From assembly GCA_943356415.1 (NCBI GenBank), contig CALREW010000001.1, positions 16,528-80,527 on the forward strand: a stretch of DNA of 64,000 bases. The letters are read 5' to 3'. Under the pieces are notes generated by a model. The model was not told where the DNA came from. It saw only the letters and a program-made list of their open reading frames with translations, and did no database searches. The translations under genes were made by a program, and so were the position numbers. The DNA is from Candidatus Nomurabacteria bacterium. GTDB taxonomy: Bacteria; Patescibacteriota; Minisyncoccia; Phycocordibacterales; SBAW01. This document shows, piece after piece, positions 2,647 to 17,428 of this stretch. Numbering within the stretch: the first letter of the stretch is position 1; every line of letters starts with the position of its first letter.

Positions 2647-3087
2647 ATGAGCACCAAGGATACGCACGGGCATCAATCGACAGGTTACGGGAAGAAACTT
2701 ATACCGGTGTTTATCGGGCTCTTCGGTATTGGTTTTTTTGTACCAAGCCTTGTGTACGCGGCACCAACGACCTTTGCTCAGTTTGTGAAAGTCATTATCG
2801 ATATCATCAACCCGCTTGCCGGTCTCCTCATCACGTTTGCGGTTCTGATGTTTTTCTTTACCGTCATACGCTATATCAGCAGTGCGGGGGCTGAGTCACG
2901 CACGAAATATCGAGAGAACCTGACGTGGAGCATGATCGGTATATTTGTCATTGTCTCAGTCTGGGGGCTTGCGCGATTGGTCAGCATGACTCTTCTTGGC
3001 GACACTTCGACGGCTGGCACAACAAGAAATGACGGCATCAACCCGCAAGTGTTTCAGCAGCCAGGATGCGGGCCAACGTGCATTTAA
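2647..3087 (+). CDS. TrbC/VirB2-like pilin-family small membrane protein, paralog 2
   Basis: Same architecture, with the shared RYI-S-AG...K...MIGIFV..SVWG motif; C-terminal tail GCGPTCI. Confidence 0.6.
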   Translation: MSTKDTHGHQSTGYGKKLIPVFIGLFGIGFFVPSLVYAAPTTFAQFVKVIIDIINPLAGLLITFAVLMFFFTVIRYISSAGAESRTKYRENLTWSMIGIFVIVSVWGLARLVSMTLLGDTSTAGTTRNDGINPQVFQQPGCGPTCI

Positions 3088-3166
3088 TTAAAAGGTATCC
3101 ACATGCCTGTATTGCCTGAGGCGCAGGGCAGGGTAGGATTAACTCATAGCACTCGTAATTAGAAAT

Positions 3167-3511
3167 ATGAAGAAATTTACTGCCGCTCTCACGGTTCTTA
3201 TGGCGATGCCGCTCGTTGCGAGCGCGCAGAACGCCCAGGGTATTATCAATATTGTTCGTGGCCTTGTAGACCAGCTCATCCCGCTCGCACTTGCGGTAGC
3301 ACTCCTCGTGTTTTTCTGGGGTCTTATCCGCTACATTTGGTCTGCAGGTGACGCTGAAGGTAAGGCAAACGGTCAGAAGATCATGACCGCAGGTATCATC
3401 GGCCTCTTCCTCATGGTTTCTATCTGGGGCATTGTCGGCATCATCGCCAACACCTTCGGTCTCACGACCGGTACTCGCCAGACTCCTCCGTCTGTCTCTC
3501 ACACCATCTAA
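3167..3511 (+). CDS. TrbC/VirB2-like pilin-family small membrane protein, paralog 3
   Basis: Signal peptide MKKFTAALTVLMAMPLVASAQ, then two TM helices around SAGDAEGKANGQK. Confidence 0.6.
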   Translation: MKKFTAALTVLMAMPLVASAQNAQGIINIVRGLVDQLIPLALAVALLVFFWGLIRYIWSAGDAEGKANGQKIMTAGIIGLFLMVSIWGIVGIIANTFGLTTGTRQTPPSVSHTI

Positions 3512-3549
3512 CTTCGTTAACTTTGCGTTCTCTTCAAAACTAGCCCACC

Positions 3550-3816
3550 ATGGGATCAGTCTGTAGCGTAATGGCGCGGGTGAACTCCGCACTCATAGAT
3601 CCTGCACTCGCACTTGTCTTTGCGGCCGGCTTCCTCATGTTCATCTACGGCGTGGTTGAGTTTATGTTCTTCGCGCGCGGCGAAAAGGGAGAATATGCAG
3701 GGAAGGGACGCGAACATATGCTCTGGGGCATCATCGGTATGGCTATCATGATGTCTGCGTGGGGAGTATTGAAAGTCGTTGCGGGAACATTCTCGCTTGC
3801 CATTCCTTCCTGCTAA
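3550..3816 (+). CDS. TrbC/VirB2-like small membrane protein, paralog 4 (no obvious signal peptide)
   Basis: Two TM helices around ARGEKGEYAGKGREH; shares the ...MLWGIIGMAIMMSAWG motif with paralogs 1-3. Confidence 0.5.
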   Translation: MGSVCSVMARVNSALIDPALALVFAAGFLMFIYGVVEFMFFARGEKGEYAGKGREHMLWGIIGMAIMMSAWGVLKVVAGTFSLAIPSC

Positions 3817-3907: not shown

Positions 3908-4612
3908 TTACTTGAAGGGGGAAGCCTTGAACGCCACGCCGCCGGGTACGTCGCCGTAGGCGAACTCCAGGACGTTTAGGTCGACCAGGTAGATCTCCTG
4001 GTTCGGGCCGACTTCCCACCACTGGATGGTCTTGGTCTTGTCGTCCCAGGCAGTGCACCGCACTTTCTTACCTTGGGCGCTGGTGCAGTATTCCACCTTC
4101 GCCTTCACCTTGCCGGTGACGACGATGCTCTGGAGGACGCAGCCGTGGTCGTTGACGACCCGCTCTCTAACTTGAGTGAAGTCGAACACTACCGCTTCGT
4201 TGCAGACGCGGCTGAGCACCCGCACCTTCGTTGCCGCAGGCGCCGGTGTCGGAGCCTGCGGGGTCGTCGGTGTCGCCGTGCCACCAGCGCGGCAGCGAAG
4301 GCGTTCCGCCTCATCTGCCTGCTTGCAGATGGTCGGCTCCGCCGGCTTGTTGGTCGGCGGAACCGTGGCTCCCTGTTGAGGGGGAGTCGGCGGTCCGTCG
4401 TCCAGCCAGTTCCAGGGTTTCAGCCAGAGGCTGCCGCCCCCGAGGAGGCACAGAAGGACGACCACGAGGCCGACTCTCCGTGCACCCTTGGTGCGCTGCG
4501 CTTGCCCGGCTTGGGCTTCGCGCACCGCGGCGTCGTTGACCGCTTGATCTCCGTCGGGAGGGGGGTCAGGGACGTGTGGCGGGTCTTGATGACCCGCGTT
4601 GTTGTTCGCCAT
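3908..4612 (-). CDS. Pro/Ala-rich membrane-anchored hypothetical protein (high-GC island)
   Basis: Long ORF in a roughly 65% GC segment; N-terminal Pro-rich low complexity, one TM (VGLVVVLLCLLGGG), C-terminal beta-rich domain with 4 Cys; co-directional with and 16 bp downstream of the SPFH-like gene. Confidence 0.5.
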   Translation of the reverse strand: MANNNAGHQDPPHVPDPPPDGDQAVNDAAVREAQAGQAQRTKGARRVGLVVVLLCLLGGGSLWLKPWNWLDDGPPTPPQQGATVPPTNKPAEPTICKQADEAERLRCRAGGTATPTTPQAPTPAPAATKVRVLSRVCNEAVVFDFTQVRERVVNDHGCVLQSIVVTGKVKAKVEYCTSAQGKKVRCTAWDDKTKTIQWWEVGPNQEIYLVDLNVLEFAYGDVPGGVAFKASPFK

Positions 4613-4628
4613 GTGGTAGCTCCCCTTG

Positions 4629-5972
4629 TCAGTTCGAATTTGCTGGCGGTGTTACAGGGGCGGGCGAACCCGCGTATAACGGAGCCAGCGGGTTGTGATC
4701 GACGCCACGGTAGAAGATTTCCGTGGCGCGTCTCCGGTTGATGCGTACGAGCTCGAGCGCCTTGACGTAGTCAAGGGTCGAACCCTTGGCCGCCGCCTGC
4801 GTGATGTACTTCTCCGCGAGCTGATGCTCGGTCTCGAAGTCGATCGTCTCGCCTGAACGCTGCTGCTTCTCTTGCGCGGCAAGGTCAGCAGCTTGGGCGA
4901 GTGCCCCCGTAAGGGCGAAATCGAAAGCGTTGGCGCGTCGCAGCATGATGCCGAGGCCGCGCACATCGCTCATGCCGTTTTGCACGACATCTTCGAGGAA
5001 GTACTCGATCTCGGCTCTCGACGGTACTTCGTCGGCGCCGAGGTAGCGTTGTGGGTCGCTCTCGTCGTACGTCAGGTACCGGTGAGGCGAGTCCTTGCGC
5101 ATGTCACGCAAGGGCCGGCCGTTTCGGGTCCCGTCATCCGTACGCACGCGCACGCTTGGGTGAACGCCGGTCAGCATCGTGATGATGCCGGCCGAAAGCT
5201 CGGGCATCATGGTCTGAAGCTCCTCCCACGTGAATTGCGTCGCGTGCTTGCGCAGCGCTTCGCTGATCATGTTGGTGAGCATCGCCCGTGCGCCCGCCTG
5301 TCTGCCTACCGTAACGAGCTGGTAGGCGCGGTTGCGCCGCGTGTCTGGTTCGAACGTGCAGCCGAAGGTAAGTTCCACCTCGCCGCCGCTCTCCCAGGGC
5401 TTCAGGACGTACTTCGCTACGCCGCCCACCTTCACCTGCTGCTGTTGATCGTCGAGCAGCGGGATGGTCTTCGGCATGAGCGTGACTGGGTCGATCATCG
5501 AATCCTTGGCGCAGCGAACCTTCACCTTGAAGTCGAACTCGGTCTGCGTGGTGCCAATGTAAATCAGCCCATCAAATCGAGCTAGCCTCAGGACGAAGGC
5601 GATGCGCGGGACGATGACGCGATTCAGCGGATGGCCGAACAGCGTGCTTATCGCCACCATCGGCGGGTCGGCCTTTACCTCATCCCACCCGAAGTAGATG
5701 ATGAGGCCCAGGACGCTGCCGAAGATGGCGATGATGATACCGGCGTTGAAGCCGAAGATCATCAGAACGATCCCGAGGAGAGTCCATGCGAGCATGAGCT
5801 GTTCCGTCGGAGTCGTCCGTGACCCGAGGAGGAAAGGCCATGCGAGCCAGGCCTCCTGTGCGGTCTGTAACCCGAGGGTCAGGGCGTTCCAAACGCCGAT
5901 GACCCTGTTGCCAATCCATACGAGGACGGCGTCGGTGTATTTCATGAGTGTCCTCCAGTTTTCAAAGACCAC
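4629..5972 (-). CDS. SPFH/Band-7-like membrane protein (putative; high-GC island)
   Basis: Two N-terminal TM helices, then a roughly 250 aa domain with SPFH-like alternating hydrophobic pattern, then a coiled/charged C-terminus; assignment is tentative. Confidence 0.4.
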   Translation of the reverse strand: MVFENWRTLMKYTDAVLVWIGNRVIGVWNALTLGLQTAQEAWLAWPFLLGSRTTPTEQLMLAWTLLGIVLMIFGFNAGIIIAIFGSVLGLIIYFGWDEVKADPPMVAISTLFGHPLNRVIVPRIAFVLRLARFDGLIYIGTTQTEFDFKVKVRCAKDSMIDPVTLMPKTIPLLDDQQQQVKVGGVAKYVLKPWESGGEVELTFGCTFEPDTRRNRAYQLVTVGRQAGARAMLTNMISEALRKHATQFTWEELQTMMPELSAGIITMLTGVHPSVRVRTDDGTRNGRPLRDMRKDSPHRYLTYDESDPQRYLGADEVPSRAEIEYFLEDVVQNGMSDVRGLGIMLRRANAFDFALTGALAQAADLAAQEKQQRSGETIDFETEHQLAEKYITQAAAKGSTLDYVKALELVRINRRRATEIFYRGVDHNPLAPLYAGSPAPVTPPANSN

Positions 5973-6074
5973 CCAGGGTCTTCTTGATGTTGATCCTGTC
6001 GCGTGGGCGAGTGCCCTCGCGGTTCGCTAAACATTATATCACAATAAATAGACATCTGTCAAATAGTGTTAGGT

Positions 6075-6098
6075 ACAAAAAATGGCCTGGTTAGGCCG
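6075..6098 (-). terminator. rho-independent terminator for the 6106-6711 gene
   Basis: ggcctggttaggcc hairpin; the minus-strand reading gives a hairpin followed by a T-run. Confidence 0.55.
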
Positions 6099-6105
6099 TT
6101 TTCGG

Positions 6106-6711
6106 TCAATAAAATAACCCGAGAGTGTTTGATTCCAAAGTAAGGACAGTACTCGCGCTAAAGACACTATTTGCGACACACAGGTACTCTGGATTTCTGA
6201 ACACATTTATAAGCACGGTGCCACCATTTTTCACTGCACTTTTTAGAGACTGCATGAAAATTTCGTCATCTAACAGCGCTGATGGTTTGCCGTCATGAAA
6301 TAAATCGACGAGAACGAGGTCGTACTGTTTGCTCACCTGTTTTAGAAATTCTCTCGCGTCTGCTTCGTAGATGTTTGGAGCGGGAAATGGATTCCATAGC
6401 TTTGCCGTACGTGCGACAGCTATCATCTGTGAGTCGTAGTCAACCGCATCGATGATGCAGTTTGGAAAATACTCGTATATCTCTTTAATCGTTCCACCTG
6501 CGCCAAATCCCAACTGCAAAACGTTCTGTACAGGTGCTTCTTGTTTTGCGTGTAGCAGGATTTTAAATGCTTCTTCCCAAATCTCAGTAAGTTCGGGGCC
6601 GGTGTTTTCGTTGCCTCCGGAAAATATCCTCCATCTACCAAGCACGCGCTTAATCAGCATCGTGCCGTTCTTTTTTGAGTGAACGGTCCGTCTGCTGAAA
6701 AGCCAGTTCAT
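6106..6711 (-). CDS. spermidine-synthase-like / class I SAM-dependent methyltransferase fold protein
   Basis: VLQLGFGAGGT...IIDAVDYD...DLVLVDLF matches the aminopropyl/methyl-transferase Rossmann motif. Confidence 0.5.
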   Translation of the reverse strand: MNWLFSRRTVHSKKNGTMLIKRVLGRWRIFSGGNENTGPELTEIWEEAFKILLHAKQEAPVQNVLQLGFGAGGTIKEIYEYFPNCIIDAVDYDSQMIAVARTAKLWNPFPAPNIYEADAREFLKQVSKQYDLVLVDLFHDGKPSALLDDEIFMQSLKSAVKNGGTVLINVFRNPEYLCVANSVFSASTVLTLESNTLGLFY

Positions 6712-6719
6712 GGATGGTT

Positions 6720-7253
6720 CTATTCAGTTTTTGTGTCGACCTGGCCGTAGAAAAGGCGAACAAGTTTGGGAAGGTCACTTTTACAAGGTTCTCCTGCATC
6801 AAGTTTTTTTAGAAGATCGCTTGGCGTGATCCACATCCACTCGCAAAAATCGTGAGGATTGTAATTGGGGACTTCGTTTTGTGTCAGTTCATATGTCTCG
6901 CTAAATGCAGACATATTGTGCTCATGCGGAGTGGCTTTGCCGAGATGTTTAAGTTGAGTTACGTCAACAACGATGCCCGCTTCTTCATGCGTTTCTCTGA
7001 TGAGTGCCGCTTCATAACTTTCTCCACTTTCTACGTGGCCTGCAACACTCATGTCGAGACAAAGCGGGAAGAGACGCTTGTGCGCCGTGCGACGTGGTAT
7101 CCAAATTTCGCCTTTGTTGTTGCGAATAAAAAGATTGACGACGCGAAAATTGCGCAAGCCTAGTGCGTATACTTCTGAGCGAGGTTTACTGTCTATTACC
7201 TCATCGCGCTCGTTGACGAGGTCGAGGATCTCTTCTTGTTCCGTCTGTTCCAT
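6720..7253 (-). CDS. NUDIX hydrolase
   Basis: Nudix box GHVESGESYEAALIRETHEEAGI (GX5EX7REUXEEXGU). Confidence 0.8.
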   Translation of the reverse strand: MEQTEQEEILDLVNERDEVIDSKPRSEVYALGLRNFRVVNLFIRNNKGEIWIPRRTAHKRLFPLCLDMSVAGHVESGESYEAALIRETHEEAGIVVDVTQLKHLGKATPHEHNMSAFSETYELTQNEVPNYNPHDFCEWMWITPSDLLKKLDAGEPCKSDLPKLVRLFYGQVDTKTE

Positions 7254-7281
7254 GTGTGGGAGTGAAAGTTGCTAAGGCAGA

Positions 7282-7854
7282 TTATTTGCCAGACTTTTCA
7301 ATTATTTTGCGTATTAGTTTCTCATCCGCAACTGCTTTGGGTGCCTTGCGACCAAATCTTTTAAGTTGAATAGCAGCTACTTGTTGCTGAGCCTCAAGAG
7401 TTGCCGTGCGTAGCGAGACTCCTTCCAGGACAGCGTTAGTTTGTTCTGGAAAATATAAGGATGAATCAATCTCGGCACCTGGTTCTAAGTGCCGGATAGC
7501 TTGCTCAAAAAGCTTTGAATTTCCCAAGTCTAATTTGGTGCCTGTTGTTTTGTGTACATATTTCTCAACCCCCTCTTCGGTTTTAAGATGTGCGAAATCA
7601 AGATTCGAGATGATCTCTTGAGCACGGACGTGGTCCTCCTCTTCGACAATAATGTCTATATCGTCGTGATCGCGACTCAATTTACCGTACAAAGCATCGA
7701 GACCATAACCACCGAGCACTGAATAGTGCACGGTGGCAGTTTCCAGGGCGTGAGAGAGGTTCTTCAAAAGATCAAAACGTTCGCGTTGTTGAAGTGACGG
7801 TCTGTACTCAGACTCGATCTTCCGGGTCCGGGAAGGTTTTTCTTTGGGCGGCAT
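7282..7854 (-). CDS. nucleotidyltransferase of the ANT(2'')/Lnu-like (PF10706-type) family
   Basis: HYSVLGGYGLDALYGKLSRDHDDIDIIV matches the W..GGWG.D...G...R.H.DIDI motif of lincosamide/aminoglycoside nucleotidyltransferases. Confidence 0.5.
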   Translation of the reverse strand: MPPKEKPSRTRKIESEYRPSLQQRERFDLLKNLSHALETATVHYSVLGGYGLDALYGKLSRDHDDIDIIVEEEDHVRAQEIISNLDFAHLKTEEGVEKYVHKTTGTKLDLGNSKLFEQAIRHLEPGAEIDSSLYFPEQTNAVLEGVSLRTATLEAQQQVAAIQLKRFGRKAPKAVADEKLIRKIIEKSGK

Positions 7855-7902
7855 AAGAAAACTTTAGCACACGACCATATTGAGACTTGATGCTAAGGAA
7901 AT

Positions 7903-8153
7903 TACCTTTTTGTGCTCTAATTCTAACATTTGCTCGAACCTACTTCACACGCGCGGAGCGCGTGGTGGCTTGAAACTGCCCCGTACGCTCCGATTAAGTG
8001 GTGATGCGAACCAATGCGCCTCAACCGCGCTCGCAGACTCGCGCGGGCAAACCCAAAAATTTCCTTGCATTTTCTTTGCACGGCTCCTCCCCCCACCCCT
8101 CCGCCTGCAAGGCGAAAAATGAGGAAAGGAAATTTTTGGTTTGCTTCGCCGCT
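7903..8153. repeat. IR-A (about 250 bp), inverted copy of 9914-10165
   Basis: The reverse complement of 9914-10165 matches 7903-8153 essentially base for base (both strands produce the shared ORF-track peptide MVMRTNAPQPRSQTRAGKPKNFLAFSLHGSSPHPSACKAKNEERKFLVCFAA). Confidence 0.9.
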
Positions 8154-8425
8154 TCGGAACTCCGAAAAGAGTACTTTTAGTTTAGCACTTATGATTGCTC
8201 TTTTCTCCATTCCTCGCGGCGACCCGAGGTGCAATACAATGCGGTCTGCGCTAATGCGCAGTCAGATTTAATATGTGCTTGCCCACCCTCCCACCGCGCA
8301 CATAATCCCCACCGTTTTAGGAAAAATTATAAAACGGTTGGGATTGCTCCATAAAATAAGAGTTTGTTTGGATTGACTTCTGAAAAGTGGTACACTATAA
8401 GCTATAAACATTAAACAATACTTTT

Positions 8426-8905
8426 ATGGGAATGGAAGGATTTAAACCTGCATCGCAGGAAAAAGAGCCGACAATTGGGACACCGGAAAACGTTGAGGGA
8501 CCAAATCAACTGGATAATATTTTGAATGTAATTCGACAAAAAATTGAGCTTGCAAAAGTGCAATTAGAGAAAGCAAATTCGCAAGAATGGATAATAGGAG
8601 AATCAGGTTTCGCAGTTGAACCAAAAGAAGCGGCTCAAGCTAAAGCAAAATTGGACTATTTAGAAAAAGCCCACGAATTATTTTTTAAACCTGTCTTAGA
8701 GTCTCCAAAATCTCAACTTTCGTTAGAAGTAGTGCTTGAGGGTATTGAAAATTATACGAAACATCTTAACGATGAGTATGCTAGACAGTTTGGTAAACTT
8801 GATCCTAACGATGTTGAAGAGACAAAACAAAATAGGGCCAAAAAAATGTGGGGGGAGATAAAACTTAGGGACAAAATTGTGTCTGAGTTTTCGTCCATTA
8901 CTTAA
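8426..8905 (+). CDS. hypothetical protein (AT-rich cargo)
   Basis: 159 aa ORF with coiled-coil-like Lys/Glu-rich composition; no recognisable motif. Confidence 0.45.
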   Translation: MGMEGFKPASQEKEPTIGTPENVEGPNQLDNILNVIRQKIELAKVQLEKANSQEWIIGESGFAVEPKEAAQAKAKLDYLEKAHELFFKPVLESPKSQLSLEVVLEGIENYTKHLNDEYARQFGKLDPNDVEETKQNRAKKMWGEIKLRDKIVSEFSSIT

Positions 8906-8934
8906 TAAAGAACTTAATAAAGACTTTTTGATTC

Positions 8935-9654
8935 CTAGATTCTTAATTTTGTTTTCCAGTTTGTAATCGCAGTGCGTAAGGATTCTTCATAGACAGATTT
9001 AAATGCTGTTTCGAGCGTTGTGTTTTCATCGAGCTTTCTATATGCCTCTATTATTTTATTTTCTCCATAAACTTTTCTTAAGTACTCAATAAAACTGAAA
9101 AGCACCAGATACCCAAGCTGGTCGGCAAACGGCTCTTTGTTTGTATCTCCTCCCATTGTTTTTATATCCCCTATTGTTTGAATAGCGAGAGGGTCGGGAA
9201 TGTCTTGAATATTTTCCTTTTCTAATTTTTCAATAAGTCTGTCTGTTGCGCCATCAAACCCCGCAGTTCCTTCTTCTAGGAAAAAAGAATTTCTATAGGC
9301 AGAGAAATTTCCAACAAGATGAGCAACGACAATATGGGCTGTTTCGTGTTTGATGATTTTTTCTGCATCATTTGGTAGATCCCGAAATACATCGACATTG
9401 CAATATATTTTGTCGTCTGGTTGATCTCGAAGAAGAAAACAATATTTCCATGATTGCGGACCAGAGGTTGCCCCTTCTCTAAAAGCATCATCGCTCATTA
9501 TTGATACCCCGATTCTTATTGGCGAGGAAACACCCCACTCTGCTTCCAAAAGTACACCAACCTTGTTAAAAGATAGCTTTACTTGCTTCTCTTGCTCAAC
9601 TAAAACGCTCCCAGAGATTTCAAATATAAAATTTATATATTGTGGCTTTTTCAT
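8935..9654 (-). CDS. ImmA/IrrE-family (Peptidase M78/DUF955-like) zinc metallopeptidase
   Basis: HExxH motif HETAHIVVAH; lies next to and upstream of an XRE helix-turn-helix gene, as in ImmR/ImmA modules. Confidence 0.55.
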   Translation of the reverse strand: MKKPQYINFIFEISGSVLVEQEKQVKLSFNKVGVLLEAEWGVSSPIRIGVSIMSDDAFREGATSGPQSWKYCFLLRDQPDDKIYCNVDVFRDLPNDAEKIIKHETAHIVVAHLVGNFSAYRNSFFLEEGTAGFDGATDRLIEKLEKENIQDIPDPLAIQTIGDIKTMGGDTNKEPFADQLGYLVLFSFIEYLRKVYGENKIIEAYRKLDENTTLETAFKSVYEESLRTAITNWKTKLRI

Positions 9655-9663
9655 CTTTAAAAT

Positions 9664-9873
9664 TTATTTTAACAACTTATCGCTCGAAACGCCGAGCGCT
9701 TGAGCCAAGCGTTCCAGCTGTTGAATGGTAATATTTTTCTTGCCGTTCTCTATCGCACTCATATAGCCCCTATCCATATCAAGCGCACGGCAAATGTCGC
9801 CTTGCGACATTTCTTTTCGAGTCCGTATTTTCTTGATATTTTGACCAAGTTTTTCACGAATCAACATATCCAC
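9664..9873 (-). CDS. XRE-family helix-turn-helix transcriptional regulator
   Basis: MSQGDICRALDMDRGYMSAIENGKKNITIQQLERLAQALGV is a canonical HTH_XRE (Cro/C1) sequence. Confidence 0.8.
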   Translation of the reverse strand: MDMLIREKLGQNIKKIRTRKEMSQGDICRALDMDRGYMSAIENGKKNITIQQLERLAQALGVSSDKLLK

Positions 9874-9913
9874 AGTTTACGAGATATTGCATTTCTAGCC
9901 AATCTTGAACTAT

Positions 9914-10292
9914 AATTCAACTTAGCGGCGAAGCAAACCAAAAATTTCCTTTCCTCATTTTTCGCCTTGCAGGCGGAGGGGTGGGGGGAGGAGCCGTGCA
10001 AAGAAAATGCAAGGAAATTTTTGGGTTTGCCCGCGCGAGTCTGCGAGCGCGGTTGAGGCGCATTGGTTCGCATCACCACTTAATCGGAGCGTACGGGGCA
10101 GTTTCAAGCCACCACGCGCTCCGCGCGTGTGAAGTAGGTTCGAGCAAATGTTAGAATTAGAGCACTAGAGAGAACAAGTCGCGGATTTAGAATTTGGAGC
10201 GATTTTGCGGAAGCCAAAATCGCGCTATCAATTTCTTTTCCGCCTACGGCGGAAGCCGTGAAATCCCATAATTCCCCCCAGCGTATGGAAAC
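9914..10292. repeat. IR-A' (9914-10165) contiguous with IR-B (10162-10292)
   Basis: The first part is the inverted copy of 7903-8153; the second part is the inverted copy of 11698-11827; the two overlap by 4 nt (gcac). Confidence 0.9.
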
Positions 10293-11844
10293 AACTCAAA
10301 CCAAAACTAAATGCGTTCTCTATGCAAGAAAAAGCACAGAGGAAGATGATAAACAAGTTATGTCCATTGAGGCACAGTTTTTTGAATTGGAAGAATACGC
10401 GCATAGAGAACGCATTGAAATCGTGAAAGTATTTACGGAAGCGAAAAGCGCAAAAAAGCCCGGGCGAGACGAGTTTGCGAAAATGATTGAATATATTGAA
10501 AGAAGCAGTGAGCCAATCGGTATCATTTGTTGGCACCCCGACCGTCTCGCCCGCAATAGCGTTGATGGCGGTAAAATAATTTATCTTGTAGACACTGGCG
10601 CTATTGCTTCTTTGCGCTTTCCGCAGTTTTGGTTTGAGCCAACTCCGCAAGGGAAATTCATGTTGCAAGTGGCGTTCGGACAAAGCAAGTATTTTTCTGA
10701 CAATCTTGTGGAAAATGTGAAGCGTGGAATCCGCCAGAAATTGCGAAAGGGTGAATGGCTGACACTTGCGCCCCTTGGCTATGTGAACAATTACAAAACG
10801 AAAAATATTGAACCCGACAAGGTAGAATCTCGCGTTATCAAGTTAGCATTTCAAGAATACGCCAAGGGAACGCACACGCTTGTTTCTCTTTCGCAATTTC
10901 TGGCGGATCACGGGATTGTGCAGAAAAAAGGAACGCCACTTGCCAAAGTTTCCGTCGTGAAAATGTTGTCCAACAGAGCATATATAGGATTTATTAAACA
11001 TCGCGGAGAATGGCACGACGGAAACTTTGAATCCATTGTTTCTCCGACACTGTTTGAAGCAGTGCAAAAAGTGTTCGCGGAACGGAAGAAACCCCGAAAG
11101 CAAAAATCGTTTCTTCCGTTCGCATTTACCGGATTTGCAAAGTGCGGAGAGTGTGGCTGTGCAATTACGGCACAATATTCCACCAACCGATATGGAGTAA
11201 AATATTGCTACTATCGTTGCACCAAGAAAAATGGAAAGTGCGCACAGCCGTATTTGCAGGAAAAATCACTCTCCGCACAATTGCAAACACTGCTTCAATC
11301 AGTGTCGCTTCCTCTCTCGGAAATTGAAGAAATGGAAAAGCAGATTGATATGTGGGAGAAAGAATCAATTTCCGAGAGAGGAAGTGTTGCCCAAAATCTA
11401 AAAACGAAACTTTCAGACACGAAGGAGAAACTGGACAAACTTATTACGCTCTACCTCGACGGGGATATTGAACGAGAAATATATTTGGCGCGTAAAGATT
11501 TACTCCTTCGTGAAAAAGCGAAAGTTTCGGAAAGTTTAGATGATTTTGGGCAACACAAGAAACAATGGCTCCAACCCTTGCGGAGTTTCATTTTGTCCTT
11601 GAAAGAAGCCACTGTTTTGCAGGAAACGGAAAACCACCTCGCGTGGAAGCAGTTTTTCCAAAAAATCGGGTCTAACCCCACTTTCAAGGACAAAACGGTT
11701 TCCATACGCTGGGGGGAATTATGGGATTTCACGGCTTCCGCCGTAGGCGGAAAAGAAATTGATAGCGCGATTTTGGCTTCCGCAAAATCGCTCCAAATTC
11801 TAAATCCGCGACTTGTTCTCTCTAGTGCCGGGGAGAGGACTTGA
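10285..11844 (+). CDS. large serine recombinase (resolvase/invertase catalytic domain, recombinase domain and zinc ribbon)
   Basis: CVLYARKSTEEDDKQ...ICWHPDRLARN catalytic domain with the Ser in ARKST; C-terminal CGECGC...CYYRCTKKNGKC zinc ribbon; ATG at 10285 (METTQ) sits exactly at the end of IR-B; the ORF track's alternative start is 10258; the C-terminal roughly 45 codons run through IR-B' and 20 nt into tRNA-Leu, so the true stop may be earlier. Confidence 0.8.
   Translation: METTQTKTKCVLYARKSTEEDDKQVMSIEAQFFELEEYAHRERIEIVKVFTEAKSAKKPGRDEFAKMIEYIERSSEPIGIICWHPDRLARNSVDGGKIIYLVDTGAIASLRFPQFWFEPTPQGKFMLQVAFGQSKYFSDNLVENVKRGIRQKLRKGEWLTLAPLGYVNNYKTKNIEPDKVESRVIKLAFQEYAKGTHTLVSLSQFLADHGIVQKKGTPLAKVSVVKMLSNRAYIGFIKHRGEWHDGNFESIVSPTLFEAVQKVFAERKKPRKQKSFLPFAFTGFAKCGECGCAITAQYSTNRYGVKYCYYRCTKKNGKCAQPYLQEKSLSAQLQTLLQSVSLPLSEIEEMEKQIDMWEKESISERGSVAQNLKTKLSDTKEKLDKLITLYLDGDIEREIYLARKDLLLREKAKVSESLDDFGQHKKQWLQPLRSFILSLKEATVLQETENHLAWKQFFQKIGSNPTFKDKTVSIRWGELWDFTASAVGGKEIDSAILASAKSLQILNPRLVLSSAGERT
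11698..11827. repeat. IR-B' (about 130 bp), inverted copy of 10162-10292, ending inside the tRNA-Leu(TAG) 3' end
   Basis: The reverse complement of 10162-10292 matches 11698-11827. Confidence 0.9.
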
Positions 11845-11906
11845 ACCTCCACATCTTGCGATACCTGCTCCTAAGGCAGGCGTGTATACCAATTTCACCA
11901 CCCCGG
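11825..11906 (-). tRNA. tRNA-Leu(TAG), type II
   Basis: Cloverleaf readable: acceptor GCCGGGG/CCCCGGC, anticodon stem CCTGC/GCAGG with loop CTTAGGA, long variable arm, T-loop TTCAAGT; no encoded CCA. Confidence 0.85.
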
Positions 11907-12011
11907 CGTAAGGGAACTATAAACCAGAAAGGGCAGGCTCAAAAGGAGGATTCGGTCCTTACAGGATGAGTACAGGGCGCACAGGTGGTCAGGGGTTTGA
12001 GTTTGGAAGGA

Positions 12012-12120
12012 TTCGGTCAAGCGCTCACTCGTCGCCGTCGCTCCTCGCTCCGCCTGACCACGATTCCGCGACCCGCCCTGCTGAGCGGGTGCCCGCGAAA
12101 TCCTTCGAATCCTTCTGGGC
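12012..12120. repeat. GC-rich structured tRNA-linked repeat E1 (candidate ncRNA or att-like element)
   Basis: Shares the ggYcaagMgctc...cgccgtcgc...gacccNNN-ctRctRa-NNNgggtgcccgcg... framework with E2 and E3; ends in an inverted copy of the tRNA-Lys 3' end. Confidence 0.6.
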
Positions 12121-12168
12121 GTAATACAAAAGTCGTCGGATACATGTATCCGACTCGTTTTGTATTTG

Positions 12169-12241
12169 TGCGCCCAGAAGGATTCGAACCTTCGACCGTT
12201 CGCTTAAGAGGCGACTGCTCTACCAACTGAGCTATGGGCGC
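12169..12241 (-). tRNA. tRNA-Lys(CTT)
   Basis: Acceptor GCGCCCA/TGGGCGC, D-loop TAGCTCAGTTGGTAGAGC, anticodon loop CTCTTAA, T-loop TTCGAAT. Confidence 0.85.
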
Positions 12242-12324
12242 ATGTATCTCACAGAACGCGGATTCGTCTCAGCCGAAGCCGGATGAACAAAAAAGATACT
12301 AACACAATACGCAGGATTCTAAAG

Positions 12325-12451
12325 TGTGCCGAGGGGACTCGGCCAAGAGCTCGTACTATCGCCGTCGCGCCAGTACTCCTCTCGGCCCTGCTCGCACGAC
12401 CCATTCTGCTAAATGGGTGCCCGCGCTCGCTTTCTCGTCCTACCCCGACAG
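12325..12451. repeat. GC-rich structured tRNA-linked repeat E2
   Basis: About 85% identical to 26143-26264 over about 120 nt; two hairpins (GTACT..AGTAC and ACCCATT..AATGGGT). Confidence 0.7.
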
Positions 12452-12496
12452 AAATTGTTAATCGCCCGGAACAGATTCCGGACTCAAACAATTTTG

Positions 12497-12579
12497 TGCC
12501 GGGGGTGGGACTCGAACCCACACGACCTTTCGATCTGGGGATTTTAAGTCCCCTATGTCTACCATTCCATCACCCCGGC
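12497..12579 (-). tRNA. tRNA-Leu(TAA), type II
   Basis: Acceptor GCCGGGG/CCCCGGC, anticodon stem GGGGA/TCCCC with loop CTTAAAA, long variable arm, T-loop TTCGAGT. Confidence 0.85.
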
Positions 12580-12763
12580 GGGTTGGGGGAATCGGTCACA
12601 GATAATCGCTCGTCGTCACTCGCGATTTCCGCGACCCCGGCTCGCGGTTTCGTCTGCTGACGAAACATCGCTGCGCCTTTCGATTCCCCACGTGCCGTGC
12701 GTAGGCACGGCACTCCCAGGACTCATTGAAACGTGCACTGTCGTGCACGAAAAGCCACTGAGG

Positions 12764-12835
12764 AGTCCTGGGGGGGAATCGAACCCCCGCGTGTCGGTTT
12801 TGCAGACCGAAGCGTTACCACTTCGCCACCAGGAC
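12764..12835 (-). tRNA. tRNA-Cys(GCA)
   Basis: Acceptor GTCCTGG/CCAGGAC, anticodon stem TCGGT/ACCGA with loop CTGCAAA, T-loop TTCGATT. Confidence 0.8.
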
Positions 12836-12862
12836 AATATGAGCCGCACGTACTTTAGCATA

Positions 12863-13207
12863 TCAGGCTCCTTTGGCCTGCTTTTCTGCTTCGTGAGAAA
12901 GTTCGTCCATGCGCTGGCGATTCTTTTCACCTTCATCAATGCGGAACTCAGCACGGGGAAGTACGCGGAAGCGTGAACGCTCTTTGAAAAATGCGCGTAA
13001 TTCTGGCGAGCGGCGGTTTGCAAAATCAACCGCTGAGCCCTCCTTCTCGCGGGGCAACACCGTGATGTAGACGATAGCTTTATGTTCTCGTTCAACGATA
13101 TCGACGCGAGTCACGGTTATCAGTGACTGTCCGCCATCTTCGCGAGCGAGGAATTCTGCGGCAAGCTCTCGTACCGCCTCTGCCAATTTTTGTTTGTGGA
13201 AAGCCAT
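12863..13207 (-). CDS. rbfA: ribosome-binding factor A
   Basis: RbfA-like sequence (LITVTRVDIV...AIVYITVL...ELR); sits downstream of infB as in the nusA-infB-rbfA operon. Confidence 0.8.
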   Translation of the reverse strand: MAFHKQKLAEAVRELAAEFLAREDGGQSLITVTRVDIVEREHKAIVYITVLPREKEGSAVDFANRRSPELRAFFKERSRFRVLPRAEFRIDEGEKNRQRMDELSHEAEKQAKGA

Positions 13208-13216
13208 TGCCGAGAC

Positions 13217-14725
13217 TTACTTCTCTATGATCGTGAAGCACTCGATACGGTCGCCCGCGGCAGGTTCTCCTTCAGTTTCGACGAGTGCTCCAAATTCCGA
13301 ACCTTTTTCGACACTCTTTGTTGCCACTTTACCGCTCTGGAGACTTTTTATGCGACCGCGGCCGAGCTCAAGGTCGCGGCGCATAAGGCGAAACTGGGCG
13401 CCATCTTGGAGCACTCCTTCTTCCACTCGGCCGCCGAGCACTACTTTGTGCTTAGTCGAGCTAAAAACTTTTAGCACCTTTGCTGCGCCAGTTACTTCCT
13501 CCACCATCTCGCGCGGCGTACGCTCTTTTGCTTTTGCTTCGAGCCACTCTGCAAGTTTGTAAATGATGTCGAAGTGCATGACTTCAACGCCTTGGCGTTC
13601 CGCCATCTCGCGTGCACGTGCATCTGGCTTGCTGTTAAAACCCAAAATGATGCCCGCAGTAGAACTGCCCGCAACGAGTTTTACGTCCGCTTCAGTCACT
13701 CCACCTACTGACGCCCCAACAACACGTATTTCAATTTTATCCTGAGGAATTTTCTCTATCTCGTGACGGATAGCGTCTATGGTTCCGGCAACATCCGCTT
13801 TTATGACGACAGGCAGTACGGCGCGCACCACTTCTGTTTCAGATGTAGGTGCAGCCTTTGGAGGCGCCATACGCGCAGCACGAGCCTCCGCTGCGATAGC
13901 CTCTGCCTCCTTTTTTGAATCAACCGTCTTAAATGCTCCTCCAATCTGTGGCAAGACTGAAAATCCAACGATGCGTACTGGAGAGCCAGCCGAGGCTTCT
14001 TTAATAGCCGTCCCTTTAAAATTTTCCATAATGCGCACCGGCGCAAACGATTCGCCTGCAACAACGTACATACCCGAAGCGAGTTTTCCGTCGCGCAATA
14101 TGAGCGTGGCGGCGATACCTTTGCGTGTATCAACATTTGCTTCGATCACGCTGCCTGAAGCGGGTGCGCTGGCGTCGTAGCTCAGTTCGGCAAGTTCCGC
14201 GGCCAACAGCACGAGGTCGAGCAATTCAGAAATACCATCTCCGCGTTTTGCGGAAATGGGAACAAATGGGACGTCGCCACCCATGCCTTCGAGGTACACT
14301 TCGTTTTCAATAAGGGAACTTTTCGTGCGCTCAAGGTTTGCGCCTGGCTTGTCTATTTTATTGATAGCCACAATGAAGGGGCGCTTTTCTTGGCGGATGA
14401 GTTTAACCGCCTCGATGGTCTGCTGCTTCACACCGTCTTCCGCTGACACCACAAGAATCGCGACGTCGGCTACTTCAAGCCCACGTGCACGCATCTTCTC
14501 AAACGCAGCGTGTCCTGGAGTGTCGAGGAAGGTGATGGCCTCAGTCGCTCCTTCTTTCGTCTGATGCGTTATTTCGTATGCAGAGAGATGTTGTGTGATT
14601 CCTCCCGCTTCTCCTTCGACCACATTTGTTTTGCGGATGTAGTCAAGCAGCGTGGATTTGCCGTGGTCGATATGACCCACGACGGCAACGATAGGGGGGC
14701 GCTTTGTGCGGGAGGCTGAGTTCAT
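13217..14725 (-). CDS. infB: translation initiation factor IF-2 (short form lacking the long N-terminal region)
   Basis: G-domain VVGHIDHGKSTLLDYIRKTNV, DTPGHAAF, NKIDK; the C-terminal beta-barrels are present. Confidence 0.9.
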   Translation of the reverse strand: MNSASRTKRPPIVAVVGHIDHGKSTLLDYIRKTNVVEGEAGGITQHLSAYEITHQTKEGATEAITFLDTPGHAAFEKMRARGLEVADVAILVVSAEDGVKQQTIEAVKLIRQEKRPFIVAINKIDKPGANLERTKSSLIENEVYLEGMGGDVPFVPISAKRGDGISELLDLVLLAAELAELSYDASAPASGSVIEANVDTRKGIAATLILRDGKLASGMYVVAGESFAPVRIMENFKGTAIKEASAGSPVRIVGFSVLPQIGGAFKTVDSKKEAEAIAAEARAARMAPPKAAPTSETEVVRAVLPVVIKADVAGTIDAIRHEIEKIPQDKIEIRVVGASVGGVTEADVKLVAGSSTAGIILGFNSKPDARAREMAERQGVEVMHFDIIYKLAEWLEAKAKERTPREMVEEVTGAAKVLKVFSSTKHKVVLGGRVEEGVLQDGAQFRLMRRDLELGRGRIKSLQSGKVATKSVEKGSEFGALVETEGEPAAGDRIECFTIIEK

Positions 14726-14743
14726 AGGATGTATGCATCGAAC

Positions 14744-15274
14744 CTACTTTGTAGCTTGCTCGCGTGCAAGGCGTATCGCTTCCTTCTCTTCTTCAGAAAG
14801 TTCAAAACCGGAACGGCCTTTTTCGATCGGTTTTCCAAACATGCTCACCCGCTCTCGGCTGTAGAGTGTTGAGAGAACAACGCCATCGCCTTGTTCGGTT
14901 ACCAATGCCGTAGCGAAACTTTGGTTTCCTCCTGAACCGTCGCCCTTAAACGGATTGAAGCGCACAGTTGAAACACCGCGTACTGAGGACGACATACGTG
15001 CCTCGGCGCGTTTGAGATATTGCTCAAGCTCAACGCGGAAACTCTCGAGATCTTTCGTGCGACGCGCAAGGGTAACAATCGATTCTTCAAGTGATGCGCC
15101 GTTGCGTCCTAGCATGAGTCGGTGTATGCGTCGGTGTTCCCATACAAGAAGTGCTATTGCGACAAGGGCAATAACACATGCTGCCGCAGCGGCGGGGACA
15201 GCAAAAGCAGCGTAGGGGATAAGTGCCTCTGACCACATGCGGGGCAGTATACCTCGCAGGCAGGCGTTAGGCAC
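14744..15274 (-). CDS. DUF4446-family membrane protein
   Basis: N-terminal TM, coiled region, then RFNPFKGDGSGGNQSFATALV...LSEEEKEAI block typical of DUF4446. Confidence 0.55.
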   Translation of the reverse strand: MPNACLRGILPRMWSEALIPYAAFAVPAAAAACVIALVAIALLVWEHRRIHRLMLGRNGASLEESIVTLARRTKDLESFRVELEQYLKRAEARMSSSVRGVSTVRFNPFKGDGSGGNQSFATALVTEQGDGVVLSTLYSRERVSMFGKPIEKGRSGFELSEEEKEAIRLAREQATK

Positions 15275-15336
15275 TAGCAGGAGAAGGATTGGAGCGATAC
15301 TCTACAGCTATGTTTTGGAAAAGAAGTCGTATCTAT

Positions 15337-16500
15337 ATGGATGCAGCCGCTGCGACACCTCTATCGCCGGAGGTGTATACGCGTTTTATTGAAGCGCTCA
15401 CGCAGTATGGAAATCCTGGCGCCCTTCACACAGAGGGAGTGCGTGCCAAAGAACTTCTTGAAGGCGCACGAAAGGAGGCCGCTGTGGCATTGCACGCGCA
15501 CGCAGACGAGATTGTCTTCACCGGCTCAGGAACCGAGTCAAACAACCTCGCTATCTTTGGTGCAGTTGGTGATGTGTCGGCGGACAAGATTCATATCATC
15601 ACAAGTAGCATTGAACATCCGTCGGTACTTGAGCCGATACGAGCGTTTGAGCGTCGTGGCGCGAAGGTGACCTACCTACCTGTTGATGCCGAGGGTCTTA
15701 TTGCTCTCTCCGCGCTCAAGGAAGCAATTGTCGACGAAACGCGACTTATTTCGGTAGGTCTTATCAATAGTGAGATTGGAACGATTCAAGACGTTCGTGG
15801 TATTGCAAAAATTATTCGCGATGTTCGAAAGACACGCGTAAATGCAGCGCCCCTTCTTCTTCATCTAGATGCTGCGCAGGCACCACTGTGGCTCAAATTG
15901 AATGTTGAACAACTGCATCCCGATCTTCTCACGCTCGATGCGCAAAAAATGATGGGTCCCAAAGGTGCGGGACTCCTCTACGTGCGTCGCGGCGTGAGTC
16001 TTCAGGCACACCTGCTTGGTGGAGGACAAGAAAGAGGACTTCGCTCCGGTACAGAAAATGCCGCCGCCGCGTCTGCACTTGCACGCGCGCTTACTCGCGC
16101 GCAAGAGGTGTGCGAAAAAAATACTGCCAATGTAGCGGAGGTTCGAGACGCACTTTTCGACGCGATTAAAAAACAAATACCTGAAGCGATTGTGAACGGC
16201 AGTTTGGAGAGTCGCGTCGCAAATAACTGCAATGTATCGGTTCCAGGTTTGATAGGAGAGCGCGCAGTTCTCGCACTCTCTGCGTGGGGAGTTGCCGCCT
16301 CGACGCGTTCGGCATGTGCCGCTAAAGACCAAGAACTCTCCCATGTGATCCGTGCACTTGAAGCAGGTGAGGGAGGTGTTGCGCGTGCTCGTAGCGCTGT
16401 GCGTTTTACCTTATTGCCCGACGCAACCGTAAGCGACGCACGCCACGCAGCAACACTTTTAGCAAAAGCTGCAGCCCAGTTTCGAAATATCGATGCGTAA
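15337..16500 (+). CDS. cysteine desulfurase / class V aminotransferase (IscS/NifS family)
   Basis: Starts YMDAAAATPLSPEV; PLP-fold motifs; LLHLDAAQA and lysine region LTLDAQKMMGPKG; the start is probably the ATG at 15337, not the ORF-track 15289. Confidence 0.8.
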   Translation: MDAAAATPLSPEVYTRFIEALTQYGNPGALHTEGVRAKELLEGARKEAAVALHAHADEIVFTGSGTESNNLAIFGAVGDVSADKIHIITSSIEHPSVLEPIRAFERRGAKVTYLPVDAEGLIALSALKEAIVDETRLISVGLINSEIGTIQDVRGIAKIIRDVRKTRVNAAPLLLHLDAAQAPLWLKLNVEQLHPDLLTLDAQKMMGPKGAGLLYVRRGVSLQAHLLGGGQERGLRSGTENAAAASALARALTRAQEVCEKNTANVAEVRDALFDAIKKQIPEAIVNGSLESRVANNCNVSVPGLIGERAVLALSAWGVAASTRSACAAKDQELSHVIRALEAGEGGVARARSAVRFTLLPDATVSDARHAATLLAKAAAQFRNIDA

Positions 16501-16576
16501 AAAGGCCAGGTCCCTTCACAAAGATAAAAAGTAGTTGTATTGTGCTGTTTAGCGGCGTCTCAAACATAGATGCGCT

Positions 16577-17428
16577 ATGATAGTGCTACTAAAGCGGCTT
16601 TTTATGGATATCGAACAGCTCAACAAGACTCAAATCCTCCTCCTGACACTCCTCGTCTCGTTCGTGACGTCTATTGCGACTGGGATTGTCACAGTGTCTC
16701 TCATGGGTCAGGCACCCCAGGGTATAACCCAGACGGTGAATCGCATTGTTGAACGCACTGTTGAGAAGGTGGTGTCTGAGCCGGTGCGACACACTGCAGC
16801 GGTAGTGACGGGTTCTCAACCGCAGAGTTCAACTGAAACCACCGTGGTGGTTAAAGACGACGACCTCGCCGCTGATTCCATTGTGAAAGTCCAAGCCGCA
16901 ACGGTGCGTCTTGTTGAGAAGGGCGGTCCGGAGTCTTCCGCCTTTGCGCGCGGCATCATTGTTGACGCGTCAGGAGTTGTTGTTACGGATCGCGCAAGTA
17001 CGGACCCAAATCTTGGCGCTGAAGTGATACTTCCTTCAGGTGTACGTTTTTCGGTGAAACCGCGTCCACCAGTAGCAGGCGAGTCACTGCGTTTCTATGA
17101 CATCAACATGACTGGCACCAGTACGCCAAAACTCACCGCGCTTCCGCTGGCTGACATGAGTAAGTTACGTCTCGGACAGTCGGTCATTCGTATCGGCGGC
17201 CGTACTCGCGATAGCGTCGCACAGGGTGTCGTCTCGTCATTGCCTCAGAGTGGTCAGTCACTTATTGAAAGCACCGCAGAGAGCGTCACACCAGGAAGTC
17301 TACTCGTTACTATCTTTGGCGAGCTTGTCGGAATAACGACTGGAGAATCGCAAGCACAAGGTGCAACGTCATACACGCCAGTTACCGAAGTAGCTCAAGG
17401 TCTTGCTGAAGTTCGTTCGACAAAATAG
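16577..17428 (+). CDS. membrane-anchored trypsin-like (HtrA/S1C-like) protein, probably catalytically degenerate
   Basis: N-terminal TM; GIIVDASGVVVTD and GSLLVTIFGELVGITTG resemble HtrA beta-barrel segments, but the His and the GDSGG Ser are not recognisable. Confidence 0.45.
   Translation: MIVLLKRLFMDIEQLNKTQILLLTLLVSFVTSIATGIVTVSLMGQAPQGITQTVNRIVERTVEKVVSEPVRHTAAVVTGSQPQSSTETTVVVKDDDLAADSIVKVQAATVRLVEKGGPESSAFARGIIVDASGVVVTDRASTDPNLGAEVILPSGVRFSVKPRPPVAGESLRFYDINMTGTSTPKLTALPLADMSKLRLGQSVIRIGGRTRDSVAQGVVSSLPQSGQSLIESTAESVTPGSLLVTIFGELVGITTGESQAQGATSYTPVTEVAQGLAEVRSTK

Follow-up and report, generated by a model that had tools for sequence, protein, structure and literature searches.

Large serine integrases, as known so far, recognise attachment (att) sites of about 50 bp and are not associated with long repeats. 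A serine recombinase also moves the small elements Tn4451 (TnpX), Tn5397 (TndX) and IS607, via a circular intermediate. Long repeats, of about 0.6 kb, occur in P1, with a crossover site at the outer end of each, and the hin gene of Salmonella is itself part of the segment that is inverted. Islands at tRNA genes are a further point of reference: in one account (PMC4383910), most of them use tyrosine integrases and duplicate tens of nucleotides of the tRNA as direct repeats, and a minority of the tycheposons, the tRNA islands of Prochlorococcus, use a large serine recombinase (10.1101/2020.12.28.424599). Here we describe an element at positions 7912–11828 of a 64,000-nucleotide stretch of a Candidatus Nomurabacteria bacterium (contig CALREW010000001.1; the whole stretch is called the window), in which a cargo segment and the gene for a large serine recombinase (LSR) are each bracketed by a long inverted repeat beside a tRNA-Leu gene. 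We consider it likely, at a probability of about 0.78, that the element is an integrated member of a family of small mobile elements with site-specific insertion, found in the candidate phyla radiation (CPR/Patescibacteria). These ultra-small bacteria account for a large part of bacterial diversity, and hardly anything is known of how genes move among them.

Architecture of the element beside tRNA-Leu(TAG)

A repeat search of positions 6500–13500 returned two inverted repeats, IR-A and IR-B. The arms of IR-A (7912–8153, plus strand, and IR-A' at 9924–10165, minus strand) are 242 nt long, 100% complementary and 1770 nt apart; those of IR-B (10162–10292, plus, and IR-B' at 11698–11828, minus) are 131 nt long, 100% complementary and 1405 nt apart. 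Perfect repeats of 131 and 242 nt lie far beyond chance expectation. The first-pass annotation, made from the letters of the window, had recognised both. Its description of IR-B as an exact inverted copy directly contiguous with IR-A' holds, and so does the repeat in IR-A, but the ends given for the latter (7903–8153 and 9914–10165) overshot by about 9 nt. IR-A' and IR-B share four nucleotides, GCAC (10162–10165), and the reverse complement, GTGC, opens IR-A (7912–7915) and closes IR-B' (11825–11828). At the outer end of IR-B' this core tetranucleotide is also the end of a tRNA-Leu(TAG) gene (..CCGGCA+C), which ARAGORN and Rfam place at 11825/6–11907 on the minus strand. From left to right, the layout of 7912–11828 is flank / IR-A, cargo, IR-A' / IR-B, recombinase, IR-B' / tRNA. 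The core occurs at all three junctions, namely flank/IR-A (junction 1), IR-A'/IR-B (junction 2) and IR-B'/tRNA (junction 3), and the last nucleotides of the tRNA gene (11826–11907), the probable integration target, are part of it (..GCA+C). Rfam scans of 5–14 kb and of the whole window returned tRNAs only, with no match in the repeats. Folding IR-A, a check proposed in the first-pass annotation, did reveal substructure, a long imperfect local hairpin in its inner half (8044–8147; fold z = −3.5 relative to shuffled sequence). In the cargo arms of other loci, a G-rich motif (GGAGGGGTCTGGGGAGGAAT-like) with palindromes on either side recurs.

The segment between the IR-B arms belongs to a gene for a 519-aa protein (10285–11844, plus strand) with matches above all cutoffs to Resolvase (PF00239, 1.3e-22), Recombinase (PF07508, 9.7e-12) and Zn_ribbon_recom (PF13408, 1.6e-08). 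Its PHROG match is the integrase family phrog_95 (5.9e-77); phrog_125, labelled 'DNA invertase', covers just the catalytic domain. NCBIfam gave a weak match to the IS607 transposase catalytic domain, and the nearest solved PDB relatives, the SPbeta integrase YokA among them, are distant (E ~1e-5). Judged by this domain composition, the enzyme is a bona fide LSR. The gene is interlocked with its repeat. Leader and start codon lie in the left arm of IR-B, although the ATG is 8 nt inside the inner end of the arm and not exactly at it, as had been thought. At the other end the reading frame does continue, as the first-pass annotation had it, through IR-B' and into tRNA-Leu: IR-B' encodes the last ~44 codons, and the final 19–20 nt are antisense to the tRNA. 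A 133-aa antisense open reading frame (ORF; 11451–11852, minus strand) holds the IR-B' copy of the recombinase start (..METVLSL..), and if the IR-B' arm has a promoter, the recombinase gene would be transcribed in antisense at its 3' end.

The cargo segment (8154–9923), which differs between family members, has a GC content of 0.38 against about 0.50 for the backbone, in agreement with its earlier description as AT-rich. It contains a gene for a hypothetical 159-aa protein (8426–8905, plus), predicted as a gene in independent assemblies too, an HExxH metallopeptidase-like gene (239 aa; 8935–9654, minus) and a gene for a 69-aa XRE-type helix-turn-helix (HTH) regulator (9664–9873, minus), transcribed away from IR-A'. 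The 159-aa protein had no match in Pfam, PHROG or NCBIfam. The other two had been read as an ImmA/IrrE-type peptidase and an XRE regulator. The regulator was confirmed (HTH_3 at 1.5e-12), but the peptidase had no match to M78/ImmA (PF06114) in Pfam, PHROGs or NCBIfam, and no PHROG match; it reached 31.8 bits for Peptidase_MA_2, just below the cutoff of 32.4, and matched a flagellinolysin-type model weakly. It does not appear in other copies of the family and is specific to the cargo of the window.

DNA identical to the window was found by exact-protein look-ups in MEGAHIT k141 assemblies of three ENA samples from the same strain and in one Logan assembly. One contig (L001) corresponds to 10025–19494 of the window. 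It begins exactly 141 nt inside IR-A' and crosses IR-B, the recombinase gene, IR-B' and the tRNA gene; the 131-nt IR-B is spanned by k-mers because its arm is shorter than k = 141. Other same-strain contigs end 29, 64, 110 or 141 nt into IR-A, as a real repeat longer than k would predict. In a 31-kb MEGAHIT contig (L002), the cargo that follows the left flank and IR-A is reversed. We dismissed this as proof of inversion, because no 141-mer spans the 242-nt repeat. With the neighbouring nucleotidyltransferase and the cargo peptidase as queries, a search for an empty site or for different contexts returned only same-strain contigs, which break 29–141 nt into IR-A. Long repeats of this kind are a systematic source of contig breaks beside tRNA genes in CPR metagenome assemblies.

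Related loci in Patescibacteria

A protein homologue search with the recombinase gave thousands of matches. The best 120 have identities of 56–100% and belong to Parcubacteria/Paceibacteria and allied groups; many lie on contigs of 1.7–1.9 kb. In a survey of one genome per species we found at least 560 relatives, and the locus counts that follow are from the best 80 (L006–L085), all in Patescibacteria metagenome-assembled genomes (MAGs). The LSR gene is nearly always enclosed by an inverted repeat of 110–144 bp. Such bracketing was seen in 68 of the 80 loci, and contig ends cut the others. The 58 complete loci have a median IR-B length of 131 nt (range 59–144), with arms 100% identical in 24 loci, 99–99.9% in 9, 95–98.9% in 16, 90–94.9% in 8 and below 90% in one. 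In 51 of 63 testable loci, a convergent tRNA or transfer-messenger RNA (tmRNA) gene has its 3' end no more than 15 nt from the outer boundary of the right arm. Targets are the genes for Ala (16), Leu (15), Glu (10) and Phe (2) tRNAs, tmRNA (2) and one each of Arg, Tyr, Lys, Ser, Pro and Gly; several loci without a called target look like tmRNA or tRNA-like ends. One element (L026) sits at tRNA-Leu(taa), beside tRNA-Cys. Exceptions include a locus with tRNA genes at both arms (L015, 7869–9553) and three without a tRNA at the right arm (L046, L064 and L081), all of which may be chromosomal rearrangements between element copies.

Many contigs begin 0–450 nt upstream of the left LSR arm, which is the signature of a second repeat. 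A second inverted repeat does directly adjoin the left LSR arm in about 24 of the 38 regions considered (the 37 loci with at least 1.3 kb upstream, and the window). It measures 150–430 bp, has arms that are 92–100% identical, overlaps the LSR arm by 0–13 nt and encloses 1.1–6.7 kb of AT-rich cargo, which is variable and mostly headed by a small XRE regulator gene. Its presence on contigs of 123 and 516 kb (L040 and L041) and with diverged arms (92% in L017, 95% in L011) indicates that mis-assembly is not an issue here. On the 516-kb contig, two inverted copies of a seryl-tRNA synthetase gene overlap arms of 426 bp (L041:333–7866), and a third, partial arm copy lies at 4522–4648.

The proteins carry the imprint of the same arrangement. 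In an alignment of 25 family members, R15, S17 (YARKS17TEEDD), R87 and R90 are invariant, and a C-terminal motif encoded by the inner part of IR-B', VSIRWGELWDF, is nearly so. N-terminal ORF extensions in the family read KSHxSPQRMET, the reverse-complement partner of that motif, and most C-terminal tails are translated antisense tRNA 3' ends (..GAGERT, ..GDPTGNRT.., ..GGPYRIRTGDL..). IR-B and the tRNA adjacency are therefore features of the family. The repeat-bracketed design reaches beyond this subfamily: an LSR of a second lineage, with just 39% identity, is likewise enclosed by an inverted repeat, of 122 bp (L062:4390–6032). At L052:2342–3790 a second-lineage LSR is convergent to a tRNA, and back-to-back tRNA-Glu and tRNA-Ser genes there each carry an element.

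The junctions can be read as recombination half-sites. The outer ~40 nt of the second repeat, here called alpha, are conserved in the family as ..TAATT.TA.CA.TTGC.CGAAC.., with the consensus t.TaATtaTA.c.TTtGC.CGAACtTTTTTcgA in 47 loci. Alpha directly adjoins the LSR arm in almost every locus, even where its partner arm falls beyond the contig. The outer end of the LSR arm, beta, has the consensus.CAC|cAaaaGAaAC.Tt..Cg.AAtTa, and the half-site on the tRNA side, ..gGGA.TcGAACC in the T-arm, is also conserved. Junction 1 (flank/alpha) is attL-like, junction 2 (alpha/beta) attP-like and junction 3 (beta/tRNA) attR-like; the two outer cores are in direct orientation, and the central core is inverted relative to both. 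The element is thus bounded by hybrid junctions with a short core shared with the target, and the same logic recurs in 20 composite loci, where a core of 4–13 nt is common to all three junctions.

This core maps to N72-A73-C(CA) of the tRNA. An encoded CCA is provided by the beta arm in many loci; the window reads GCACTA. The tRNA cluster of the window (11826–12835) comprises four genes (Leu-tag, Lys-ctt, Leu-taa and Cys-gca), none encoding CCA, and tRNA-Lys and tRNA-Leu(taa) also end in ..GCAC, which makes them potential alternative targets. Junction 1 has just the common core and no displaced tRNA fragment. Its chromosomal flank is not conserved and often contains a hairpin followed by a T-run, as expected of DNA that once followed a tRNA. 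In alpha, the sequence CGAAC is 6 nt more distant from the core than it is in the tRNA half. In characterised LSRs, the zinc-ribbon-domain motif sits about 5 bp farther outward in attP than in attB half-sites, and the CGAAC offset recalls this shift, although the analogy is suggestive only.

Two hairpins in IR-B (10199–10223 and 10238–10254, mirrored at 11767–11791 and 11736–11752) are kept by compensatory changes across 34 loci. They were defined by eye and then tested; RNAalifold gave no consensus owing to gapped loops. In the covariation analysis 79% of cells were paired, compared with 60% in shuffled sequence and 37–46% with slid partners, and 77 double changes were observed against 30, with 0 of 500 shuffles reaching the observed value. 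On the tRNA strand, where IR-B' is the DNA after the tRNA 3' end, the first hairpin (11767–11791) and a T-rich tract lie 35–60 nt past that end and are terminator-like. They may replace the terminator displaced by the insertion, and upstream of the LSR gene the same hairpin may insulate or attenuate recombinase expression.

The sole recurrent cargo gene encodes a 65–73-aa XRE HTH protein next to the LSR-proximal arm and is transcribed away from that arm. Homologues from 13 composite loci form one blastp cluster and are all placed alike, and among the 41 loci with sufficient flank at least 23 have a detectable copy; the protein is a reasonable candidate for the element's regulator. Other cargo includes a superfamily 1 helicase with an MTES_1575 nuclease, N6/N4 methylases and type IIG-like enzymes, AAA_15 with MutH, MazF/PemK, RhuM, ART-PolyVal, trypsin-like and M50B peptidases, sodium:solute symporters, seryl-tRNA synthetase and many proteins without a family.

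Nucleotide comparisons show that the recombinase module moves between unrelated genomes with different cargo. In four pairs of loci (L031/L035, L031/L041, L010/L011 and L062/L065) the DNA of the LSR segment is 92–96% identical, and 0% of the 2-kb right flank, the 1.5-kb left flank and the cargo is alignable. In some pairs the cargo arms are conserved at their outer ends only. Some MAGs contain two or three distinct elements of the family, each inserted at another tRNA. Elements also occur in tandem: L098 reads flank/B1-LSR1-B1'/A-cargo-A'/B2-LSR2-B2'/tRNA-Glu, and in L100 and L101 composites are followed by another cargo module. Such arrays are predicted by repeated integration at a regenerated tRNA end, which implies that nothing but the tRNA half of the target is important.

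Nearly all loci share one orientation. A departure from it is a permuted form (L034, probably also L099) in which the tRNA 3' end lies at the left arm and the LSR gene is co-directional with the tRNA. In this form IR-B' leads into an alpha arm, beyond which a minus-strand cargo gene begins with its 3' end, both segments being flipped relative to the canonical arrangement; the arms of L034 are 92% identical, which makes its assembly unambiguous. The permuted form is explained if the circle A-C-A'-B-S-B' (C, cargo; S, recombinase segment) opened at the internal junction and not at the joined ends. In about 16 of 120 family protein clusters the C-terminal tail reads into the alpha arm and not into a tRNA, and one such protein (P0121) is at least 90% identical to the window recombinase; proteins of this type are encoded in the tandem arrays and the permuted form.

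Proposed mechanism and alternative explanations

We propose that the LSR integrates a circular form of the element at a generic tRNA 3' end and T-arm, the tRNA half of the target being decisive. Recombination of junction 1 with junction 3 would excise the whole block as a circle, and the empty target site would read ...AAGGAAATTACCTTTTT-GTGC-CGGGGAGAGGACTTGAACC.... In the circle, the joined ends IR-B' and IR-A would form a second, inverted copy of IR-A' and IR-B, with two inverted 373-bp attP regions separating cargo and recombinase. Either attP copy could be used for integration, which would account for the rare permuted form, and each of the two segments would be geometrically invertible. 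The beta arm beside the tRNA would restore the tRNA end and supply a replacement terminator hairpin. Upstream of the LSR gene, beta would act as the recombinase leader, probably auto-regulated because the predicted binding site lies within it, and the small XRE protein, divergent from the LSR across the central junction, would be the regulator of the element. The canonical orientation may predominate by placing an intact alpha/beta site over the divergent HTH and LSR leaders. Identity of the arms would reflect recent mobilisation and/or gene conversion, with old copies decaying to 82–95%.

Two related ideas were rejected. We do not regard each repeat-bracketed segment as an independently excising cassette, since the cores flanking each segment are inverted, although this leaves the left recombinase module of L098 (see below) unaccounted for. 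A hairpin-telomere or rolling-hairpin origin of the repeats predicts palindromic duplication of the flanks or unique segments, which was not seen.

A more speculative possibility, which we consider distinctly improbable, is that the internal IR-A'/IR-B copy is itself functional, a single strand folding into two coaxial hairpins, A/A' and B/B', as a built-in splint by which an element borne by transformation is re-circularised from single-stranded DNA. Competence machinery is common in CPR bacteria and takes up single-stranded DNA. The hairpins would protect the element from exonucleases and bring both of its ends onto the internal junction, and the fold would rebuild a double-stranded attP nicked exactly at the core. 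Once re-circularised, the element would be integrated by its own recombinase, and correction of stem mismatches would reset the arms to identity at each transfer. If true, this would be a mode of transfer without phage or conjugation.

Several points weigh against our interpretation that the window contains an integrated copy of a mobile element. Excision and integration rest on junction logic and not on observation. No empty-site allele and no circular form was recovered, same-strain contigs merely breaking at the repeats; the circular junction is unrecognisable in contigs because its sequence would be identical to the internal junction. The search of CPR genomes suggested in the first-pass annotation likewise found the same architecture in Patescibacteria relatives but no empty-site allele of the tRNA-Leu locus. 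No candidate for a recombination directionality factor was recognised; such factors are diverse and small. Two identical attP regions predict both orientations equally, yet the canonical one dominates, and selection after integration would be needed to explain this; among loci with IR-B arms at least 99% identical, none is flipped. In the L098 array, the distal recombinase module (5062–6757) has no alpha arm on its left and abuts a flank with a hairpin and T-run, and the whole-composite model leaves this module without explanation. A promoter and terminator scan of the arms gave match counts no higher than in shuffled sequence, with promoter-like matches at chance level; promoter positions in the arms are presumptive. 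Finally, known LSR biochemistry offers no explanation for repeats of 131–430 bp as opposed to sites of about 50 bp.

Orientation also bears on the alternative that the primary function is DNA inversion, a phase-variation switch of the cargo and/or the recombinase gene to which the tRNA site is incidental. This proposal, which we judge unlikely, draws on the geometry: with the central junction inverted relative to the outer ones, only inversion is possible within each segment, and identical arms leave both genes intact in either orientation. The recombinase segment is indeed opposite to the tRNA in L034 and L099, and the cargo is found in the opposite orientation in L103 and in the same-strain contig L002. 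The orientation in the latter carries no weight, as k = 141 falls short of the 242-nt repeat that the contig crosses. Orientation is otherwise near-uniform, including every locus with near-perfect 131-nt arms, a length that reads and k-mers can span. The HTH gene stands beside the recombinase-proximal arm throughout its 13-locus cluster, and at least 23 of the 41 loci with enough upstream flank have a detectable divergent HTH gene. Nor is there any visible output that depends on orientation, since the arms, including the leaders, are identical. Inversion also leaves the 95%-identical modules in unrelated genomes, the tRNA specificity and the tandem arrays unexplained. Of the readings put forward in the first-pass annotation, a two-segment inversion system therefore agrees with the geometry and with L034, where both segments are flipped, but near-uniform orientation leaves frequent switching unsupported. 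Another of those readings, an integrative element at tRNA-Leu, is supported and extended by the same architecture at many Patescibacteria tRNA and tmRNA 3' ends and by near-identical modules in unrelated genomes.

Those modules also speak to the idea of a fixed, domesticated chromosomal feature, such as a tRNA-linked regulatory cassette, that is inherited vertically and no longer mobile. The failure to find an empty site or a circle and the decay of some arms to 82–95%, as for immobile relics, would suit it. Recombinase DNA that is 92–96% identical between genomes without alignable flanks would not, nor would different tRNA targets in one MAG, tandem arrays and invariant catalytic residues, and we regard this explanation as quite improbable. 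We give still less credence to a remnant of a prophage or ICEBs1-like element in which ImmR/ImmA controls excision upon DNA damage, the switch invoked in the first-pass annotation. An XRE HTH gene does stand beside an HExxH protein, and the recombinase matches a PHROG integrase family, but the peptidase is neither M78 nor conserved. Only the small XRE gene recurs, and the peptidase is missing from other members, whose cargo includes restriction-modification genes, toxins and transporters. The 3.9 kb hold no structural, replication or conjugation genes. A search of IMG/VR with the family alignment found zero recombinase relatives in 2.9 million viral contigs, which leaves a phage origin unsupported. 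The last alternative, an assembly artefact or a recent inverted duplication private to this genome, was also among the first-pass readings. The arms are 100% identical and same-strain short-read assemblies break at IR-A, as an artefact would have it. However, the two-repeat architecture is found in dozens of genomes from different studies and assemblers, contigs of 100–500 kb included; loci with arms diverged to 82–97% rule out collapse or mis-joining; IR-B, shorter than k = 141, is crossed in an independent assembly (L001); and WGELWDF, the end of the recombinase that IR-B' encodes, hardly varies among family members. We therefore reject this explanation with near certainty.

Other features of the window lie to the left of the element. 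Four consecutive small T4SS_pilin (PF18895) genes occupy ~2239–3816, as listed in the gene table of contig L002, which is co-linear. They precede two minus-strand ORFs (234 aa and ~440 aa; 3908–5972) with no Pfam family on record and a GC content of 0.60–0.68, compared with ~0.50 for the backbone. Directly after these comes a low-GC block (5950–7900) with genes for a methyltransferase, a NUDIX protein and a nucleotidyltransferase. The high-GC ORFs and the low-GC block may be a mosaic of foreign DNA beside the element.

Comparison with known systems

The LSRs of phages and integrative and conjugative elements (phiC31, Bxb1, A118, SPbeta SprA/YokA) have the same combination of Resolvase, Recombinase and zinc-ribbon domains as the window enzyme. 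Their elements likewise have hybrid junctions with a short target core, and the ends by the core resemble each other and the target half-site. Those elements usually target protein-coding genes, whereas this family targets tRNA ends. They keep no intact inverted attP-like junction mid-element, as this family does, and the start and end of the recombinase gene sit within a 131-nt inverted repeat only in the latter. Tn4451, Tn5397 and IS607 differ in that they lack long terminal inverted repeats and tRNA specificity and have targets that are GA dinucleotides or loosely defined; the IS607 TnpA is, moreover, a small serine recombinase.

The serine invertases Hin, Gin and Cin, the last with the C segment of P1, also combine a serine recombinase with a segment between inverted repeats. 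They are small serine recombinases (~190 aa) with a C-terminal HTH that need an enhancer and Fis, and they are neither integrases nor linked to tRNAs. By contrast, the window protein has 519 aa and LSR domains, and both orientations are rarely seen in its family. In layout, the closest match to the inferred circle is the yeast 2-micron plasmid (FLP/FRT), with two unique segments separated by two long inverted repeats that contain the recombination sites, and one segment coding for the recombinase. FLP is, however, a tyrosine recombinase, and the 2-micron plasmid is autonomous and uses inversion for copy amplification; here there is no replication gene.

The resemblance to tRNA islands, including the tycheposons, is one of life style: small size, cargo, insertion at tRNA 3' ends, tandem accretion and defence or niche cargo. 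This family differs in sharing only 4–13 nt with its target, in being built from two segments bracketed by inverted repeats, and in its serine-type recombinase. A full-text literature search found no description of the element family, consistent with the earlier remark that long repeats around both cargo and recombinase fit no standard family.

With at least 560 relatives in species-representative genomes, the family looks like a major vehicle of accessory genes in CPR/Patescibacteria, and its cargo ranges from restriction-modification, toxins and helicase-nucleases to transporters and even an aminoacyl-tRNA synthetase. The apparent recognition of generic tRNA features (T-arm and C-A-C(CA) end) is unusual among large serine integrases and relevant to genome engineering. 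Three junctions, a retained inverted attP-like site and long near-perfect repeats lie outside current models of serine-integrase elements and pose a testable mechanistic question. By analogy, the element would work like an LSR-driven tRNA island, comparable to the LSR-bearing minority of tycheposons. Relative to the described families that we found, four of its features are apparently undescribed: the two nested or adjacent long inverted repeats, the internal inverted attP-like junction, the reverse-complementary start and end of the recombinase gene, and the targeting of generic tRNA ends.

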